Notes under the pieces: model-generated
What the model saw: the letters and a program-made list of their open reading frames with translations, nothing else
What the model was told of the DNA's origin: nothing
Databases searched by the model: none
Part shown: positions 20,357 through 64,000 of the stretch, in pieces
How positions within the stretch are numbered: the first letter of the stretch is position 1
Layout of the letters: every line of letters starts with the position of its first letter
Position numbers and translations under genes: made by a program
From: Candidatus Woesearchaeota archaeon CG_4_10_14_0_2_um_filter_33_13
GTDB taxonomy: Archaea; Nanobdellota; Nanobdellia; Woesearchaeales; GW2011-AR9
Reading direction: 5' to 3'
DNA length: 64,000 bases
Assembly (NCBI GenBank): GCA_002792115.1
Contig: PFNQ01000013.1
Location: 7,236 to 71,235, forward strand

Positions 20357-23260
20357 CTAGCAGTTGTAATCAACGATCCACGTTGAAATTTTCCCGCCAG
20401 TAAACTGTTGTACTTCATCAAACTTTTCAAAGCACTTCGTTCCAAGACCATCAAAAAAGAATAACTTGGTAAAGGTGCTGTACGCCAGCGACGTGTCAGA
20501 TAACAACGCAGCATACCCATTACCATTTGGAATCAGAATTAAAGATGAACCGATAGTCTGACCATCAAATTTTTGTTCTTTTAACTCTTTTCCTTGTACA
20601 TAAACTAAAGATGCTGGGGAAACATTTTGTCCGTTATTAGTTCTAACTTTAGCAATGGCTTCATTTAAATTGATATCTAATGTAATGGATCCTTGCTGAG
20701 TATTGATCTGGCAGGTTACATTTGCTGAACTACTATTCTGACATTGATTTAACCCAGAATGATAGCTTGGCCATGAAGCAATCCATTGATCGGCATCTGT
20801 GGTTTGTATTTCATAACGAATCCTGTCTGCTTCATCTTCAGTTAAGGAGAAATTTTTAGTTAAATAATTAATTGCATCATCTTTTTTCATATTTTTTGTA
20901 TTTTGATACATAACTGCTTTATCAAAATCCCAGCTTCCAAAATGTCCCCAAACTCCTGCTTTACCCACCATATCTTCTGAGGTGATGTAATAATCGGTTG
21001 GTGCTTCGCAGTGTGTGTATTGAATAACGGAAGCCACTTGATTAGCATTTAATCCATAATCATTTAAGGTTTCAATCGCAGCTTCTTTCTTTTCTACGAT
21101 TATTTTGTTGATTATCTTAATCTCTTTTGGCGTGTCATTGAAAATATTATCTAACTCTATGAATGCACTGTTTTGCCCGCAATTTAACATTCTGATTATG
21201 CCTACTGTTGTTTTTTCATCGCTTGTCAAAAGTGATTTCCCGACCCAATGGGCATCCCATCCAACTTGCATACCTCCATCAAAGGTTGTTGGTCGCTCAG
21301 CTATCGCCATAAACCAGTATCCAAAATCCCACCACGAAGTTATCACTGCTTCAGCGGGAGCTTCGCTATTGATCTTAGTTAAAGTGTTATGCCAAGCATC
21401 ATTCATCGCTGGTACAGAATTGTATGCAGTTGAATATCCTGCCATGCTTGGTTGAATTAATAGCACTCCTAACAATAAAAATACAACCACCTTTGAAATA
21501 GTTAAATTAAGATTTAGTTCTTTATTAGTCCAATTACTAATATAACTCCAAGCTAATCCCAAGAATGCACCGAATAATATTGCCACTATCGGTGCAACCA
21601 TTAAAATAAACCTAACTCCCCTTGTTGTAGTATATAATGCTATAGCTAACCAAAAAGATAAAATTAATGCAATCATCAAATTATTGTTTGATTTATCTTT
21701 AACATTTCTTAACATCAATAAAATAATTCCTACTATCGCTAGAGTAAAAATTAGTTTTCCTCCTACTTGGCTGATTACTTGTGAGAATGGAGCAACATTA
21801 AGCTCTGCTACTGTAGTTAAGATATTTGGCCATAAGGAATCTATTGCTACTGCCTTTAAGTGGATTAATGAATTTATTGGTTCAAACAATCCGCTGTAAA
21901 AAGAGTTAAACGAACTAAATATAGAAACAAAAAGTCCTGAACTTATGAGGTAGGTTCCAAATAGGGACACATTTGAGAAAAAATCATCTTTCTTAATTAG
22001 AGTTTTAAGAGCCTTAGAATTTCTAATTAATTCATAAGCAAAGTATGAAAGCATAGATACTGCAAATATGGAAAAGAAATACCACCAAGCTCCCCACACA
22101 AAACTAAGTAATCCTGTTGCTAAACCAGCTAAGACAGTCCAACCTAATTTCTTCTTTAAATCCTTGCAAGTAATCGCTTCAATTAATAACCACAAAATCA
22201 GTATTGGAAAGAAGACAACGTAAACATCTGTGTCTGAACTTTCTCCGGTGGTTCTGGAAACAAAAAAAGCTGAGACTGCAATTAAAATAGCAACAAAAAA
22301 TCCACCAACATTATTTTTAGTGATTTTTTTACCGATAAAGAATGCAGGAATAACTGTTAATGCTGAGAAGATAGTTCCTATTAAAAAGAAACTAAACATC
22401 AATGGTACGTCTGAAAAAGAACTTAAAAATCGATGTAAAAATGCTCCAAACCAGGTGTGAAAATTTCCCCCTTCTGGTGAACCAGTTGGGTAGGCTCGAT
22501 AAGAATCATAATACTTTCCATCTTTTATTGAATTACCCGGATGACCATTTTCTAATCTATATTCTGTTTGTCTGTAAAAATAATAAGGGTCAATTCCTAA
22601 CAGATATAAAGTTCCCTGATCATCTCTAAACTGATCTTTATATTGTTGTGATACTTGCTTAATATCATTATTAACCTGGTCCTTGTTTTTCTCTTTTAAT
22701 TTTTGCAATTCATTCTGGACTAATGCATCTCTGTTTTGTTGTGGCAAGTTAGGATACTGTTGATTGATCTGGGCGGTAACTTGATTTTGATAAAAATTAT
22801 TAACTGTATTGTCGGCCCATTCATCGGTTATTGACATTCTTAATGGCATGGTTCGTAGATAAACAGAAGCAAACATAGCAATTAAAATAAATAATGCGGG
22901 GATGATCCATTTAGCATTAGTTTTAGCAAAAGTGGTAATTTTTGAAAAATCTACAGAAAGTTCGTCATCATTAACTTCTTTTTTGTGATGTTTATGTTCC
23001 GGATGGGAATGTTTATCTTTATCAGAAGAAGTTAAGCTTTTAAAAAATCGTTTAGCTTTATTTTTTATCTCAGAAAAATCTATTGATAAATCCTCATTAT
23101 CCTTATGAAACTCTTTTTTAACAACTTCTACTTTCCCAAGAGTGATCGTTTTTTTGTCACTATGATGTTGCAAAGTGTCTTCTGTTTTTGTTTCTTCCTG
23201 CTCCTCAGTATTAGAATCAATCTTAATATCTTTAGCCAATTTTCCACCCCAATAATCCAT
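20357..23260 (-). CDS. aglB: Archaeal oligosaccharyltransferase AglB (STT3 family)
   Basis: Polytopic N-terminal domain with EL1 motif GIDPYYFYRQTE and catalytic SWWDFGYW (WWDYG) motif plus large C-terminal globular domain. Confidence 0.85.
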   Translation of the reverse strand: MDYWGGKLAKDIKIDSNTEEQEETKTEDTLQHHSDKKTITLGKVEVVKKEFHKDNEDLSIDFSEIKNKAKRFFKSLTSSDKDKHSHPEHKHHKKEVNDDELSVDFSKITTFAKTNAKWIIPALFILIAMFASVYLRTMPLRMSITDEWADNTVNNFYQNQVTAQINQQYPNLPQQNRDALVQNELQKLKEKNKDQVNNDIKQVSQQYKDQFRDDQGTLYLLGIDPYYFYRQTEYRLENGHPGNSIKDGKYYDSYRAYPTGSPEGGNFHTWFGAFLHRFLSSFSDVPLMFSFFLIGTIFSALTVIPAFFIGKKITKNNVGGFFVAILIAVSAFFVSRTTGESSDTDVYVVFFPILILWLLIEAITCKDLKKKLGWTVLAGLATGLLSFVWGAWWYFFSIFAVSMLSYFAYELIRNSKALKTLIKKDDFFSNVSLFGTYLISSGLFVSIFSSFNSFYSGLFEPINSLIHLKAVAIDSLWPNILTTVAELNVAPFSQVISQVGGKLIFTLAIVGIILLMLRNVKDKSNNNLMIALILSFWLAIALYTTTRGVRFILMVAPIVAILFGAFLGLAWSYISNWTNKELNLNLTISKVVVFLLLGVLLIQPSMAGYSTAYNSVPAMNDAWHNTLTKINSEAPAEAVITSWWDFGYWFMAIAERPTTFDGGMQVGWDAHWVGKSLLTSDEKTTVGIIRMLNCGQNSAFIELDNIFNDTPKEIKIINKIIVEKKEAAIETLNDYGLNANQVASVIQYTHCEAPTDYYITSEDMVGKAGVWGHFGSWDFDKAVMYQNTKNMKKDDAINYLTKNFSLTEDEADRIRYEIQTTDADQWIASWPSYHSGLNQCQNSSSANVTCQINTQQGSITLDINLNEAIAKVRTNNGQNVSPASLVYVQGKELKEQKFDGQTIGSSLILIPNGNGYAALLSDTSLAYSTFTKLFFFDGLGTKCFEKFDEVQQFTGGKISTWIVDYNC

Positions 23261-38774: not shown

Positions 38775-41700
38775 TTAACGTCTTTTTCTTTTTAAGGAAA
38801 CAATCAGGCCCATCAACACAGCAATAAATACTAATGCTACCATTATTGTTAATAATGATGTGTATGCAGTAGTATCCCTAAAAGAAGCTATTGTTTTCTG
38901 GCTTTGCACCTTCCTTACATCTAACTCATTTTGCAACTGCAAAGCTAACTGATCTTTGTTAACATATTGGTTAACCGCTTGTGTGGTTGAACTTTGTGCG
39001 TAACAATCTGTTAACTCTAATGTTACATCAGTACTATCTTCCAATATGTCATTATCCCTGTAAACCTTTACTGTAAGTGGATATGATCCCGCTTTAGCAT
39101 CTTCCAAATTAAGATTGAACGTGGCTTTGTAATCGTTGTCGCCACTGGAGTACTTTTCCAAGTCTATAGCAGTTTTACTCAAACTTAAGTCTAAAGCAGA
39201 GTTTTCTACAACAATCTTAACATCATCTTCATTACTCTTTCCAATATTCTCAACCATTACTTGCATAGTGGTTTGTCTTAAACATTGTAAAGTGCTAGAG
39301 GACAAGGAAGCAGAGTTGATGATAACTTGGTGTGTCTCTAAATCTACATCTACAGTTTTAATTTCTGTTGTAGTATGTGTAGACCCATCATCTGCTTCTC
39401 CTTCTATAGTTAGTTCTAATGTGTAAGTATCTTCATCAATGGTTTCTCCTTTAAGGTCAAAATCAACTGTAAAGGTTTCACTGTCTCCATCTCTAATATC
39501 ATTTTCATCAGATTCTTCTTCAAGGTCTTCTCCGTCAACATCTAGAATCTTAACCATCACAAACACATTATTAATGTCTTCACTATACTCATTGTTAACT
39601 TTAATTTCTATCTCATTTAGGTCTTGCAATGAAAGTTTTCCAGAGGATTTGCCATTAATCTTGATGTTATCAACTGTTAAGTAACTTTTTGGACTTAAGT
39701 AAATATCTTGCTCACTTGAATCCTCGTTGCTAGTAACATTTATTCTTCCAATCTGATGTTGTCCAGAATCTTCTCCTTCAGGAACGTAAAAGTTAAAGGT
39801 TAAGGAAAATTGTTGTCCTGCACTCAAACTTACTGGAACGCTTCCAGAAAAATTTGCTTTGTACTTGCTATTAATATCAAGTAGTTCTACTGATAATCCT
39901 GTTAATGATTGGTAAGTTCCAGTATTCTTAATAGTAACTTGAACACTTCCACTTTTTCCTTTATCAACGTTGCTTATAACGATCGGCGATATATCTATTG
40001 TAGCAGGTTGGTCTTCTACAACAAGATATGTAGAAAAACCTGTTACTGTAAAGATTATTTGTCCATTACTGTTATTGGTTATAACACAAATGGATTCTGG
40101 ACAAGTACTAAATTCGCTAGCATCATTATCAAACCCTTCTGCACGAAGAATCCTCGGGTTAGTAAATGATTTTTTTATAGTAATTGTTGCTGGAACATTT
40201 AATTCTGGTGCAGCATTATCACTAGTGTCGACTGAAACTTTATTAACATTAACCACAATAACTTCATCTATATTCAAGATTCCCGTCAAATCTAGATTGC
40301 CGTCAAAAACAATCTTTGCAAAGTTATTCTCAATTGTGAACTCATCTACACTTGCAGGATCTCTTATCTTACCATCAAAACTACCATTCCAATAACCTTC
40401 TGGAATTAATCCAGATTCTGAAACCGGTTCATCAGTGACGATATAAGTCCAAACTTGGGTATACTCTCCATTTATTTCCGCGTAAACCTCAAATTCACCA
40501 ACTTGATCAAATGGCAAGGGGTAATTTACTCCTTGGTAAACAGCTTCATCATTTACATACCACATTACTCTTTGATCAAAACCATCCTCTGCTAAAGTGA
40601 CACTTAATTCATCATCTGGTTGTCCTAACCCTATAATCCAGGTGTCTTCTTCTGGAGCATATGATAATAAACAATTATTTCTTTTTACTGTTGTTGACAA
40701 CACATTACTATATGTGGAATCGTCTCTGTACAACCCTTTAACATAAATAGTGTTATCTCCTTCACTTAAATCTTCAGTTTTTATCCATATTTTTATTAGT
40801 GCAGCAGTTGCTGAATCTATGGCTGGAACTTCTTTAACAATCTCTAAATCTCCTGATTGAATCAGCAATTTAAGATCGTCCTCTGTGTTTTTGCCAAGAT
40901 TGGTATACTCAATATTTAACCAAGCCCCTCCCCGACAAGTTAATTCTGATTGTCCTAAAGTTACGGCATTAATGATAATATCTGCGGCATCTTTGCTAAC
41001 TTCTAAATTAAAATTAAATAAATCCTTTCTCAGAATGGATGGATTTTGATAATCCTTACCAGTTATGATCAAATCAACGTTAAACACCTGCTCTACTGCT
41101 ACTAATGGTACATCAAAATCGATTGAAATAGTTTTTGTTTCTCCTGGATTTAAATTTGTGTTAAATTCATTTTCAACAACTGCACCATTTACATCCAATT
41201 TGTAAGCCAGTCCAGTTAACTTATAATTTAGGTGATTATTAACTTCAACACTAAGAGTTACATGGTCCAGTGGTTTTAACTCTTGGGCTAAATCTCCTGA
41301 ATTGACAGTTTCTCCATTTACTTTAAGAGATTTGATCTCCAGTGCGGGGGTAACAGATATATTAACTGTTTTTTGTACAACACCACCATAACTATCATCA
41401 ACAGAGATGGTGCAGCTTGCGTCCTTTTTCCAGTTTACACCTAACTTTAATTGTAATTGTTCATTTGTAATAACCTTACACAAAACTCCGCCCTTTTGGG
41501 AAATTTTTGTATAAATCAAATCGTCTCCGTCAGCATCAGAGAATAAGTCAGTAAGTTCTAGGATTATTAATTCATTATTTACTTCTGCTAAGTTCTGGGA
41601 TAGAATTGATCCAACAGGTTTTCTATTATTTGCAGAATTTTTTGTCGCTTCATTAGATATAATCCATTCTATATTGCCGTCATGGATACGAGAAATAAGT

Positions 41701-42119
41701 TCGTCTGTTAATAGAGTATCTGTGTGTGTTGCAATGGCTGCATGAGTGTAATCTCCGTAAGTAAGGGCGTCAATGAAACCAGACGGAGAATTCTTAAGAA
41801 CAATTTTGTCCCCAGAATCAGTTAGTTTATTATTTAATTCTAAAATTAGGTGACTATGTCCATTAATTTTTCCAGTAATGACGGTATCTCCTAAGTTGGT
41901 TCTAATAAATCCAGTACCTAAGGCATCATAATCAACAGAATCTACTCCGGTATTGTATAACTCGATCCATTCATTTCCTGTGCTTGGGTCAACCATTATT
42001 TCGTTAATGACCACGTCAGTATCCATACCTAATGCTGCTTTGGTTGTTAATATCAAAGCAACAATTACAAAAAGAATTGTTAGAATTTTAGTTTGTTTCA
42101 TTTTGTTTTTATACCTCAA
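38775..42119 (-). CDS. Large secreted surface (S-layer-like) protein with N-terminal lamin-tail domain and C-terminal TM anchor
   Basis: Signal peptide; LTD signature VVINEIMVDPSTGNEWIELYNTG; many N-x-S/T sequons; C-term hydrophobic helix + KRKRR. Confidence 0.6.
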   Translation of the reverse strand: MRYKNKMKQTKILTILFVIVALILTTKAALGMDTDVVINEIMVDPSTGNEWIELYNTGVDSVDYDALGTGFIRTNLGDTVITGKINGHSHLILELNNKLTDSGDKIVLKNSPSGFIDALTYGDYTHAAIATHTDTLLTDELISRIHDGNIEWIISNEATKNSANNRKPVGSILSQNLAEVNNELIILELTDLFSDADGDDLIYTKISQKGGVLCKVITNEQLQLKLGVNWKKDASCTISVDDSYGGVVQKTVNISVTPALEIKSLKVNGETVNSGDLAQELKPLDHVTLSVEVNNHLNYKLTGLAYKLDVNGAVVENEFNTNLNPGETKTISIDFDVPLVAVEQVFNVDLIITGKDYQNPSILRKDLFNFNLEVSKDAADIIINAVTLGQSELTCRGGAWLNIEYTNLGKNTEDDLKLLIQSGDLEIVKEVPAIDSATAALIKIWIKTEDLSEGDNTIYVKGLYRDDSTYSNVLSTTVKRNNCLLSYAPEEDTWIIGLGQPDDELSVTLAEDGFDQRVMWYVNDEAVYQGVNYPLPFDQVGEFEVYAEINGEYTQVWTYIVTDEPVSESGLIPEGYWNGSFDGKIRDPASVDEFTIENNFAKIVFDGNLDLTGILNIDEVIVVNVNKVSVDTSDNAAPELNVPATITIKKSFTNPRILRAEGFDNDASEFSTCPESICVITNNSNGQIIFTVTGFSTYLVVEDQPATIDISPIVISNVDKGKSGSVQVTIKNTGTYQSLTGLSVELLDINSKYKANFSGSVPVSLSAGQQFSLTFNFYVPEGEDSGQHQIGRINVTSNEDSSEQDIYLSPKSYLTVDNIKINGKSSGKLSLQDLNEIEIKVNNEYSEDINNVFVMVKILDVDGEDLEEESDENDIRDGDSETFTVDFDLKGETIDEDTYTLELTIEGEADDGSTHTTTEIKTVDVDLETHQVIINSASLSSSTLQCLRQTTMQVMVENIGKSNEDDVKIVVENSALDLSLSKTAIDLEKYSSGDNDYKATFNLNLEDAKAGSYPLTVKVYRDNDILEDSTDVTLELTDCYAQSSTTQAVNQYVNKDQLALQLQNELDVRKVQSQKTIASFRDTTAYTSLLTIMVALVFIAVLMGLIVSLKRKRR

Positions 42120-56815: not shown

Positions 56816-56954
56816 ATGCAATCCTACATTTTTTTAATTAAAACTCACACTTCTCAATTTAGCAAACTTAATGTATTTATTTGTTTTTTTAAGACGACAT
56901 TCTTCAAGTTAAGGTAACACAAGCTTTATAAATAAATATAATATACTTTAATCA

Positions 56955-58955
56955 ATGCCAAAAAAGAGGTTGGGATGTGGTTTATTTAGTTTTCTTCCTA
57001 TTAGCTCAGGCTCTGGGCGAAGCTCTAAAAGAGGGCAAATCACTGTTTTTATTATTCTGGGCATTTTAATGTTGTTGGCATTGGTTTTAGTTATCGCTTT
57101 AAAATCAGAAATTTTTGCTTTTAAAACGGATGAAATCGCTCCTACAGAAAAAGGCAAAGTTGAAAATTATATTGTTGCGTGTATGGATAGACTTGGAGAA
57201 GAAGCTTTATTTAAAATTGGTCTTCAAAGCGGATACATTGAAGTACCTACCCAAATTGCTAAAGATAATCAACAAAGTTTGAGACTTTCTCCTATGAATG
57301 TAGTTCCCTATTGGGCGGTTGGGCCAAATATCTTTGTTCCCTCATTACAAGAGATAAAAGAACGGATTGATCTTTACATGGAAGAAAATATGCGCGATTG
57401 TCTTTTCTCTACTCAAGCTTTTACAGAACAATACGACCTAATCGAGAAAAGTGAAATTACTGCAGATACAAATATTGCTGAGAATCAAGTTATCTTTAAT
57501 ATTCATTGGGACATTGAAGTTAATAATAAAGCAGGAGAAGTTGTTAGTGAAGTTATCAACCATATTACTGAGTCTCCTGTGAAATTAAAGAAAGTTTATA
57601 CTATGGCAGTAAAGATTCTTGAGAATGAGATGCAATCATTAAAGGTGGAAGATATTACTCAAGACCTTATTGCTTTAGAACATCCTAAAGTGCCGGTAGC
57701 TGGAATTGAATTAAGATGTAGTAAAAAAACATGGGATGTTAAAGAAGCGGAGAGTACTTTGCTAAAGATGTTACGTATCAACATCCGAGAATTAAAAATT
57801 AAAGGGACCGATTTTTTAGAGTTTCCTGAAGAATTACCTTACTATGATAATCATTATGTTTGGGACATTGGAGAAGATATTTCTGAAAGAAAAGTTAGTG
57901 TAATGTTTAACTTTGATGAGACTTATCCACATGTTTTTGCAGTTACTCCTTTATCCGGCACAAAAATGGCTAGTTCTCAATTAGGTGGTACTGATCAAAT
58001 TTCTTTCTTATGTATTCAAACGTGGAAATTTACTTACGATTTGGTTTACCCGGTACTGGTAAGAGTGAGGGATGAAACAACCAATTATGAATTTAATATG
58101 GCCTTTACAGTTCATTTAATTCAGAACACTCCTAACAAAGGCGATCCTGTCGCTAGAGCTTCGTTGCAATTTCCTACAATAAATGCTGATGGGTATTGTA
58201 CTTCTGCTAATGTTCCAATGAGTATAAAAACTTATGAACTAGTAGAAAATGGTGAGGGAGTAAGTTATAACGAAGATTTGGGAGATGTTAACCTCAGCTT
58301 TACTTGTTTAAGATACAAATGTGACTTGGGCCAAAGTAAATACGACTACGCAGGTTTGGGTTTCTCTGGAATAAGTTTGAATGTGCCGTATTGTGTTGGA
58401 GGAATTTTAAGGGGAACTAAACCAGGATATAAAGAATCTTGGCAGAGAGTAGTTACAACGGCCGGCAAGGAAGCCGAGTTAAGCTTGACTCCAGTTATTA
58501 ATATTCCTCTCAATAAAATTAAGGTGGTTAAACATGATTTTACTGAAGTTAATGGAGTTAAAAATATTGGTCCTGCTCAAGAAGGTGCAGTTGAGGAGAC
58601 TACATTAATCAAACTTAAGTTTATTAAATCAAATCTTACCGAAACAAATTTAGAACATGAGGCTACTGTTGCAGTATCAAAACAGATGGACAAAAAAATA
58701 TTTGAAGAAGAGAAATTAGAATTGTTGGCTAAAGCCGATTTTACCTATTATTTGGAAGTGATGGTTTTCAGAGAAGAAGAGTTTATTGGAGGATATAAAG
58801 GTGAAGTAACCTTACCTTGGAGCCAATTAAAAGATGCTAGTCAATTAATCTTCCACATTTTATCCAGTAAAACAACTAATGAGGAAGAAATGTTTGCATT
58901 TATGACAAACATTGAAGAGCTGAGCAAAGAAATACCTGCTTTAGAAATAAAATAA
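56955..58955 (+). CDS. Membrane-anchored (signal-anchor) 666-aa protein of unknown function
   Basis: Basic N-term then TM (ITVFIILGILMLLALVLVIAL), large extracytoplasmic domain; TATA-like 25 nt upstream; 31 bp before giant ORF. Confidence 0.5.
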   Translation: MPKKRLGCGLFSFLPISSGSGRSSKRGQITVFIILGILMLLALVLVIALKSEIFAFKTDEIAPTEKGKVENYIVACMDRLGEEALFKIGLQSGYIEVPTQIAKDNQQSLRLSPMNVVPYWAVGPNIFVPSLQEIKERIDLYMEENMRDCLFSTQAFTEQYDLIEKSEITADTNIAENQVIFNIHWDIEVNNKAGEVVSEVINHITESPVKLKKVYTMAVKILENEMQSLKVEDITQDLIALEHPKVPVAGIELRCSKKTWDVKEAESTLLKMLRINIRELKIKGTDFLEFPEELPYYDNHYVWDIGEDISERKVSVMFNFDETYPHVFAVTPLSGTKMASSQLGGTDQISFLCIQTWKFTYDLVYPVLVRVRDETTNYEFNMAFTVHLIQNTPNKGDPVARASLQFPTINADGYCTSANVPMSIKTYELVENGEGVSYNEDLGDVNLSFTCLRYKCDLGQSKYDYAGLGFSGISLNVPYCVGGILRGTKPGYKESWQRVVTTAGKEAELSLTPVINIPLNKIKVVKHDFTEVNGVKNIGPAQEGAVEETTLIKLKFIKSNLTETNLEHEATVAVSKQMDKKIFEEEKLELLAKADFTYYLEVMVFREEEFIGGYKGEVTLPWSQLKDASQLIFHILSSKTTNEEEMFAFMTNIEELSKEIPALEIK

Positions 58956-58986
58956 TTTCAGTTTAAGAAATGATGTATCATTAAAC

Positions 58987-64000: not shown

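Follow-up and report, generated by a model that had tools for sequence, protein, structure and literature searches.

Two adjacent plus-strand genes lie near the 3' end of a 64,000-nucleotide stretch of DNA from Candidatus Woesearchaeota archaeon CG_4_10_14_0_2_um_filter_33_13 (the whole stretch, G000:C19:7236-71235, is hereafter called the window). The first encodes a 666-residue protein with a predicted prepilin-type N-terminus, referred to below as the anchor, and the second encodes a very large, Cys-rich and predicted secreted protein, referred to as the giant. The genome is a metagenome bin of 1.33 Mb in 57 contigs, estimated as 92% complete, and all 13 listed runs that contain this DNA are groundwater or aquifer DNA metagenomes, with no RNA run among them. 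The sequence has 33% G+C, and its GC content does not deviate. Homologues of the pair are labelled as Woesearchaeota, Nanoarchaeota or Nanoarchaeia metagenome-assembled genomes, which together with the genome size bears out the small-genome DPANN archaeon proposed in the initial annotation. The features of the two genes are listed below, with window coordinates, strand and, for protein features, amino acid (aa) positions.

56955..58955, plus strand: gene 1, open reading frame (ORF) of 666 aa for the pilin-like anchor protein (P0001)
56955..57104, plus strand: predicted prepilin-type (class III) N-terminus of gene 1, from conservation in 70 homologues and a Kyte-Doolittle peak of 3.43
57147..58952, plus strand: gene 1 ectodomain, an alpha/beta domain (aa ~65-400) followed by beta-sandwich domains
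58956..58986, plus strand: spacer between gene 1 and gene 2, 31 bp, with no oligo-T run
58987..64000, plus strand: gene 2 (giant), open at the window end, with 1,671 codons inside the window
58987..59076, plus strand: Sec-type signal peptide of the giant (aa 1-30), predicted cleavage after Ser-Ala and before Leu-Glu
59086..59334, plus strand: FN3-like domain (aa 34-116), PF16656 at E 2.3e-6
59479..59781, plus strand: acidic lineage-specific insert (aa 165-265), rich in N-glycosylation sequons, conservation 0.05-0.14
59779..60546, plus strand: Ig-like stalk domains (aa 265-520), weak Glucodextran_B match, with Big_6 or Big-like matches in homologues
60544..63999, plus strand: conserved Cys-rich core (aa 520-1700, up to aa 1671 in the window), sequon-depleted
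60559..61062, plus strand: cadherin/Ig-like beta-sandwich (aa 525-692)
61087..61275, plus strand: 63-residue helix (aa 701-763), from DSSP on the model (helix 182-244)
62137..62286, plus strand: variable insert (aa 1051-1100), mean conservation 0.08
62416..63051, plus strand: hallmark helical module (aa ~1144-1355), with the highest block conservation (0.6-0.7)
63064..63999, plus strand: C-terminal beta-sandwich region of the core (aa 1360 onward), model strands 841-1178

The two ORFs, first described as running from 56955 to 58955 and from 58987 to the window end with 31 bp between them, were recovered exactly so. At the base composition of the window a stop is expected about every 13 codons, the probability of an open run of 1,671 codons is p ~1e-57, and a chance origin of the giant ORF is excluded. 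The downstream sequence needed to complete this ORF was obtained: its stop lies at contig position 72578 (window-equivalent 65343), giving a full length of 2,118 aa with no N in the sequence (L002:6223-12579). Contigs of an independent groundwater run (X2) span the whole stretch with few substitutions and 0 insertions or deletions, so that the in-frame stop or frameshift named in the initial annotation as fatal to its proposal did not appear on resequencing. Because of the 31-bp spacing and the strict synteny described below, gene 1 and gene 2 are probably co-transcribed, and the suggestion that they form a genuine gene pair is supported on the same grounds.

The 666-aa protein had been described as a signal-anchored protein with no recognisable domain. 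The second part of this description stands, since gene 1 could be placed in no family of Pfam, NCBIfam or PHROGs, each of the 239 homologues detected carries the name 'hypothetical' and an ESM Atlas search with the anchor returned just its own family of 'hypothetical proteins'. A plain signal anchor, however, does not describe its N-terminus, which consists of a basic leader of 27 residues ending in Lys-Arg-Gly, a predicted cleavage site at G27|Q28 and a hydrophobic helix reaching to about aa 50. Of 70 homologues, 69 have Gly or Ala at position -1, 69 have Gln at +1, 69 have Thr at +3 and 69 have Gly at +9; Lys or Arg precede the cleavage site (positions -1 and -2 were noted) and the sequence is hydrophobic through +22. 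Distant orthologues from other orders have the same motif after a leader of just 4-9 residues, which is the canonical class III layout. The basic residues, the Gly or Ala at -1 and the hydrophobic helix of about 20 residues that characterize class III signals are thus all found in the gene 1 product, and the high conservation of this N-terminus argues that it is more than a plain anchor. Class III signals may carry a large non-pilin ectodomain. We infer that the gene 1 product is a type-IV-pilin-like, class III signal protein with a cleavable leader. In the AlphaFold model (predicted local distance difference test, pLDDT, 82.6) the N-terminal helix is followed by a second helix packing against the alpha/beta domain and then by beta-sandwiches, including a transthyretin/CnaB-like domain at aa ~416-515. 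Fold searches with this model gave generic matches only, tandem Ig-like adhesins among them.

The giant starts with a Sec-type signal in which a basic stretch, a hydrophobic core and a small-x-small site are kept across about 110 homologues. Beyond this signal, a transmembrane scan (Kyte-Doolittle, 19-residue window, threshold 1.6) detected no segment over the threshold and no C-terminal anchor. Because the Sec signal is conserved and no other segment reaches a transmembrane score, the giant is predicted to be secreted with a cleavable signal and not to be the membrane protein first proposed. The internal hydrophobic helices reported at that time do exist as amphipathic helices in the structural model, but none of them scores as transmembrane. 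Likewise the N-terminal FN3-like domain is present but weak, as both PF16656 (28.5 bits against a cut-off of 30) and fn3 (15.9 bits against 25) fall below their gathering scores at aa 34-116; a precomputed PF16656 match is present in most giant homologues. The acidic insert that follows is absent from most of them. Residues 1-520 contain 0 Cys and 2.31 sequons per 100 aa, the core has 3.4% Cys and 0.17 sequons per 100 aa, and the whole proteome averages 1.15% and 0.83. Relevant to the sequon-rich stalk, the minus strand of the window encodes a 967-aa AglB/STT3 oligosaccharyltransferase (20357-23260). Some giant homologues (P0010, P0016, P0017, P0024 and P0026) have a transglutaminase-core domain (PF01841) and, by BLAST, some 200-260 extra N-terminal stalk residues at the position of the acidic insert; the domain would sit in this stalk insertion.

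The core is the conserved part of the giant. Aligning 120 homologues (36-69% identity) showed 36 cysteines conserved in at least 97% of them, and homology extends past the modelled region (aa 520-1700) to about aa 1915. The AlphaFold model of the core (pLDDT 81.6, predicted template modelling score 0.73) contains the cadherin-like sandwich, the 63-residue helix, helical hairpins around a Gly-rich loop and the beta-sandwich domains. Within the long helix, aa 728-753 are moderately hydrophobic and under the transmembrane threshold. The hallmark module has invariant Cys at 1208, 1229, 1244, 1253 and 1267, and its Gly-rich loop (aa ~1257-1292) is modelled with low confidence. Further on are a GCDC motif (aa 1422-1425) and a run of Gly (aa 1534-1538), where the Cys are 98-99% conserved. 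An exported Cys-rich giant had been correctly recognized at the outset, but the 20-residue Cys motif then put forward (aa 1068-1087) lies in the variable insert, where its four Cys are conserved in 6-25% of homologues (conservation 0.06-0.25), and the signature of the family is instead the 36 other, invariant Cys.

Outside the window, the giant ends with a Thr/Ala-rich linker and an SH3b domain (aa 2060-2107; PF08239, E 3e-6) that passes its cut-off marginally (27.8 bits against 27). The SH3b fold is known for peptidoglycan binding. In a near-identical strain from an independent groundwater run the SH3b tail is exchanged for a different Cys-containing cassette: at L002:12260-12494 (window-equivalent ~65024-65258) the linker and SH3b are replaced by 497 nucleotides (nt), giving a 2,088-aa variant (P0003). 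A regular-expression survey of homologue tails recognized three recurrent types and left about half of the tails unclassified. A Cys-Pro-Gly...Cys-Cys-Pro-Pro motif terminates, or is present within, 30 of 113 giant homologues (e.g. P0007-P0012) and at aa 2004-2014 of the giant itself.

Homologues of the giant number at least 156 at 36-69% identity over the core. A profile of the core matched 634 cluster representatives among 1.84 billion proteins and is encoded in 135 species genomes. The full-length giant is present in 35 of the 36 genomes of the family to which the window belongs. Beyond this family, both in the rest of the order and in further orders of the class, detection was limited to the central module (profile positions ~620-960, or 639-779), always within an ORF of 1,500-3,200 aa. 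The anchor is better conserved than the giant: of 301 high-quality genomes sampled from the whole class, 286 have its gene. Wherever the contig permits, the order anchor, giant and a 202-aa protein encoded next is kept, in 79 loci. The pair, whose conservation the initial annotation proposed to check, is also conserved across more remote relatives, an anchor orthologue (E 1e-74 to 1e-114) standing directly upstream of a giant ORF in all five distant loci examined. A second, diverged pair is encoded in the same genome (C15:8717-14494; L094:2718-8492). It consists of an anchor paralogue of 774 aa with the same prepilin-like N-terminal motif (25% identity over 422 aa) and, 27 bp further, a 1,141-aa protein with a Sec signal whose best similarity to the giant is the hallmark module, with four invariant Cys all aligned. 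This co-conservation and co-duplication are the strongest available evidence suggesting that anchor and giant work together.

What had been taken for a two-gene module is larger here, for the pair opens a run of six tightly spaced same-strand genes for exported proteins, with gaps of -10 to +1 nt after the giant. The gene that follows the giant is:

L002:12578-13186 (outside the window), plus strand: 202-aa pilin-like protein

Its homologues have Gly or Ala at -1 in 60 of 65 cases and, at +5, Glu in 50 and Gln in 10 of the 65, which is the classic type IV prepilin signature. Profile-profile comparison with the anchor gave an alignment confined to the N-terminal signal regions (probability 21%), and because only these regions align the two are not demonstrably paralogues. 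A complex prediction that combined the anchor ectodomain (aa 58-666) with residues 36-202 of the small pilin-like protein, run without controls, scored 0.00, which counts neither for nor against an association. Beside the giant in the five distant loci the 202-aa protein was not found, and its place is taken by a different protein, about 250 aa long and with a hydrophobic segment in its N-terminal part.

After the small pilin gene comes a gene for an 879-aa secreted enzyme with a weak glucosaminidase-like stretch and a metallophosphoesterase domain; its N-terminus looks SGNH-like by eye, with no Pfam match. A 207-aa protein with a C-terminal hydrophobic segment and a DUF218 protein are encoded next. 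The 207-aa gene (L002:15820-16443) overlaps both neighbours, and its translation contains seven masked X and weak bacterial TSP3-like acidic repeats. We surveyed the slot after the small pilin gene across relatives: 57 of the 59 loci have a plus-strand ORF there that is at least 150 aa long and begins within 1.2 kb. Pfam searches with 58 such proteins returned GDSL/SGNH (16), SLT (15) and DUF2272 (10) domains, as well as M23, phage-tail lysozyme, SleB-type hydrolase, M15, Amidase_2, glucosaminidase and polysaccharide deacetylase domains. When 30 loci were inspected singly, 19 encoded an unambiguous peptidoglycan-acting domain, of differing types (SLT, M23, M15, Amidase_2, Hydrolase_2, phage-tail lysozyme or polysaccharide deacetylase), 7 a DUF2272, SGNH, FGE-sulfatase-like or metallophosphoesterase protein, and 4 an unrelated or matchless one. 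The downstream gene is the sole SLT gene of the genome in three of five related genomes. The position of this slot is conserved and its catalytic domain is exchanged, as in a cargo or effector slot.

The prepilin peptidase and the assembly ATPase and platform genes that such signals call for are present in the genome. An A24 prepilin peptidase is encoded at C28:35268-35618 (PF01478, 55 bits), and a type IV pilus-like locus at C20:33532-38501 encodes a T2SSE-type ATPase (PF00437, 118 bits) alongside two T2SSF platform genes (PF00482). The same locus includes a candidate major pilin of 131 aa, which has Gln at +1 and Glu at +5. A start of basic residues, Gly or Ala and then Gln is shared by several other ORFs of the genome. 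About eight ORFs with prepilin-like N-termini are clustered at C57:34051-54874, among them that of a 1,047-aa protein which begins like the 666-aa anchor (E 3.5e-7 in a weak profile match confined to the N-terminus), and the giant-size ORFs C35:1584-9689 and C40:11078-17494 also start with Lys/Arg-Gly followed by a hydrophobic stretch. In all, the genome holds nine ORFs of more than 1,700 aa (4,296, 4,203, 2,744, 2,701, 2,138, 2,118, 2,101, 1,805 and 1,797 aa).

Upstream of the module are genes for HIT, PNP, PfkB, AdoHcyase, GatD, MgtC, DnaJ and PAC2, and this housekeeping order is shared by relatives at 39% and 64% identity. Such a conserved order before the module argues against a mobile or viral origin, which we reject on gene context and distribution. 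Two short elements were read from the sequence between PAC2 and gene 1:

56829..56835, plus strand: T7 run, 14 nt past the stop of the PAC2 gene
56925..56932, plus strand: TATA-box-like element TTTATAAA, ~25 nt 5' of the gene 1 ATG

The T7 run resembles an oligo-T terminator and would set PAC2 apart from the module. The second element reads as a predicted promoter on the basis of the archaeal TATA consensus, and its spacing would suit a leaderless transcript. Elsewhere in the window, the minus strand at 38775-42119 encodes a 1,114-aa ORF with lamin-tail, Nup98-type autopeptidase S59 and CARDB domains, a combination unusual for an archaeon.

No clear match to a well-characterised family, an outcome that had been named at the outset as one that would overturn the proposal, was found for either protein of the pair. 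NCBIfam and PHROGs searches returned 0 matches for the anchor, the giant and the 202-aa protein, and PDB sequence searches with profiles of the three gave no hit below E 0.2. An ESM Atlas search with the giant core returned nothing usable. The core belongs to no known Pfam family, and the fold search with its AlphaFold model, in which single-domain matches may be missed because the model is large, gave generic beta-sandwich domains only. Literature searches, together with term searches inside selected papers, returned no description of the anchor/giant pair. An undescribed giant family with a role in contact with other cells, as first suggested, is plausible.

In its layout the locus can be compared with the PilY1 (PilC)/minor-pilin clusters of bacteria. 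In both, a large, Sec-exported and anchorless adhesin-type protein is encoded between or beside pilin-like proteins with prepilin signals (Gly or Ala at -1, and here Glu at +5 in the small protein), and the ATPase, platform and A24 peptidase are encoded elsewhere. In contrast to those clusters, the module is archaeal, its anchor is a 666-aa protein carrying Phe at +5, its disulfide-rich giant has roughly double the size of PilY1, and no sequence or fold similarity was found. For the C-terminal beta-propeller of PilY1 there was neither a Neisseria_PilC Pfam match nor a propeller among the fold matches, the giant being modelled over aa 520-1700. The anchor itself resembles archaeal class III signal proteins (pilins, archaellins, Sulfolobus bindosome binding proteins and EppA-type Gln+1 substrates) in its basic leader, Gly or Ala at -1, Gln at +1 and hydrophobic helix, but differs from them in matching no curated model and, here, in its 27-residue leader, shortened to 4-9 residues in the distant orthologues; its ectodomain has no recognised fold. 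Among DPANN archaea, the SPEARE proteins of Nanohaloarchaeota are presented in passages of PMC6642349 as giant proteins with protease, adhesion and restriction-endonuclease domains and a proposed role in host interaction. The giant is comparable as a giant predicted surface protein of a DPANN archaeon, but it belongs to another lineage and none of the defining SPEARE domains given there was detected in the pair. Large lytic murein transglycosylases of Woesearchaeota and Pacearchaeota genomes are described in passages of PMC9723730, PMC11537232 and PMC12352652, and in relatives the gene directly 3' of the module encodes such a large SLT/GH23 enzyme; those passages do not mention pilin-like and giant genes preceding the transglycosylase.

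We tentatively favor the interpretation that the pair forms a pilin-anchored surface complex contacting bacterial cell walls. The A24 prepilin peptidase of the genome would remove the gene 1 leader at G27|Q28, and the remaining hydrophobic helix would hold the protein in the membrane or place it at one end of a pilus-like fibre (base or tip), with the ectodomain holding the giant. The giant would be exported via Sec and lose its signal peptide; having no anchor of its own, it would depend on the gene 1 product for retention on the cell, and in this lineage it may also be held by the small Glu+5 pilin-like protein encoded just downstream. Its FN3/Ig stalk would be glycosylated, its core would be stapled by disulfides and free of glycosylation sites, and its C-terminal cassette, SH3b in this genome, would be exchangeable. 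Its variable ends would bind the envelope of a partner while the secreted wall hydrolase acts locally, and the complex and hydrolase would most likely let the archaeon bind a bacterial wall, of host or prey, and open it locally. A broader and rather unlikely version is that the pair is the core of an unrecognised cell-contact machine of Woesearchaeales, Pacearchaeales and the class, in which the prepilin-processed anchor would present the giant, the hallmark module would engage or penetrate the partner envelope, the end cassettes would be exchangeable and, in some lineages, wall hydrolases would plug in.

Several observations weigh against a wall-contacting complex. Position +5 of the anchor is Phe in 66 of 70 homologues and so lacks the bacterial-type Glu, although Glu+5 is also absent from many archaeal pilins and Phe+5 counts only against bacterial-type membership. 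The leader is long here, and searches against curated pilin N-terminal models (Pfam at E<=1, NCBIfam at E<=0.1) gave no match. The hydrolase and the small pilin are missing at the five distant loci, so that the pair cannot have served ancestrally for wall attack. The SH3b match is barely over its cut-off and lineage-specific, and a wall-contacting complex does not account for the 1,400-residue conserved core. A near-universal anchor gene (286/301) among housekeeping genes would fit a core envelope component at least as well. Finally, we infer the mutual binding, the cleavage and the surface position.

The last but one of these points leads to the main rival, an S-layer (surface layer)-like two-component envelope in which the giant would be the canopy, like SlaA, and the 666-aa protein the membrane-anchored stalk, like SlaB, the hydrolases being separate scavenging neighbours. 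We consider this a serious possibility, if on balance an unlikely one. It would account for an anchor near-universal in the class, for a full-length giant in 35 of 36 genomes of its own family, for the conserved position among housekeeping genes and for a smaller anchored protein that is more conserved than the faster-evolving large secreted one, and the sequon-rich N-terminal third of the giant suits it too. No known S-layer Pfam family (PF07752, PF05123) was found in the genome (92% complete), so the S-layer protein is still to be assigned. S-layer proteins are typically Cys-poor and fast-evolving, however, and 36 invariant Cys with long invariant motifs would be unusual among them; the core is also strongly depleted of sequons (0.17 vs 0.83 per 100 aa). 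Compared with SlaA/SlaB of Sulfolobales (PDB 8qox), the proteins described here are Cys-rich with a sequon-poor core and no sequence similarity, and the anchor helix is N-terminal and prepilin-like, which is not a SlaB feature, instead of C-terminal. The likeness to SlaB amounts to one generic beta-sandwich (overall template modelling, TM, score 0.12-0.17), and strain-level tail swapping and a second paralogous pair are better suited to adhesin-like modules.

Other explanations are less probable. A cellulosome-like or free exoprotein scaffold, in which the giant, with or without the anchor, would organize hydrolases to scavenge peptidoglycan fragments without specific cell-cell attachment, agrees with an anchorless giant with a Sec signal, with the variable hydrolase genes directly downstream and with the SH3b tail, and peptidoglycan degradation by Woesearchaeota has already been proposed from murein transglycosylases in a passage of PMC9723730. 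We nevertheless regard it as improbable: recognisable docking repeats were not found, the pair is kept in lineages lacking adjacent hydrolases and its strict pairing with a membrane- or pilus-anchored partner speaks for retention on the cell. The fusogen role, with fusexin/HAP2 or teneurin folds, raised in the initial annotation found no support in fold and family searches. In its general form, a fusion or pore device in which the hallmark module, with its long helices and Gly-rich loop, would enter a partner membrane and open a cytoplasmic bridge, it draws on the 63-residue helix, the helical hairpins, the conserved low-confidence Gly-rich loop and a core without glycosylation sites, and host recognition and connection in DPANN archaea are presented as unresolved in a passage of PMC11329633. 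It is very improbable, since the models matched no fusogen, pore-forming toxin or viral fusion protein in PDB or BFVD, the giant lacks by Kyte-Doolittle the C-terminal transmembrane anchor of fusexin/HAP2 and ends in SH3b, the loop is only moderately hydrophobic with several acidic residues, and 19 putative disulfides would impede large refolding. For teneurin/Tc/RHS proteins, a YD/RHS Pfam match was absent at E<=0.1 and the sole teneurin match was the transthyretin-like domain of the anchor. A bin of 57 contigs and the frequent mis-assembly of giant ORFs might have pointed to an assembly artefact, a pseudogene or viral or mobile cargo, but such a non-functional origin is effectively refuted by an ORF intact in independent runs, by hundreds of full-length homologues with conserved synteny with PAC2, GatD and AdoHcyase, and by unremarkable GC content. 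A phage tail or receptor-binding origin likewise found no PHROGs match for the three core proteins and no viral fold match in BFVD at E<=1e-3, and around the module are housekeeping genes that relatives conserve.

Few uncultured archaea are as widespread as Woesearchaeales and their relatives. The module provides a concrete, class-wide candidate for their surface apparatus, made of two unannotated families with hundreds of homologues each in these searches and with genes that are always adjacent, and its signals link the pair to the machinery that processes type IV pili. Within one large lineage the pair is hard-wired to swappable peptidoglycan hydrolases and an SH3b tail, which offers a testable set of proteins for the proposal that some DPANN archaea live on bacteria. 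The pair is also the best current candidate for the unassigned S-layer of the group, so that whichever reading holds, a gap in archaeal cell biology would be closed. If it does prove to be the core of a cell-contact machine, the largest uncultured DPANN group would have its long-sought apparatus for interacting with hosts, and bacterial partners would be implied.

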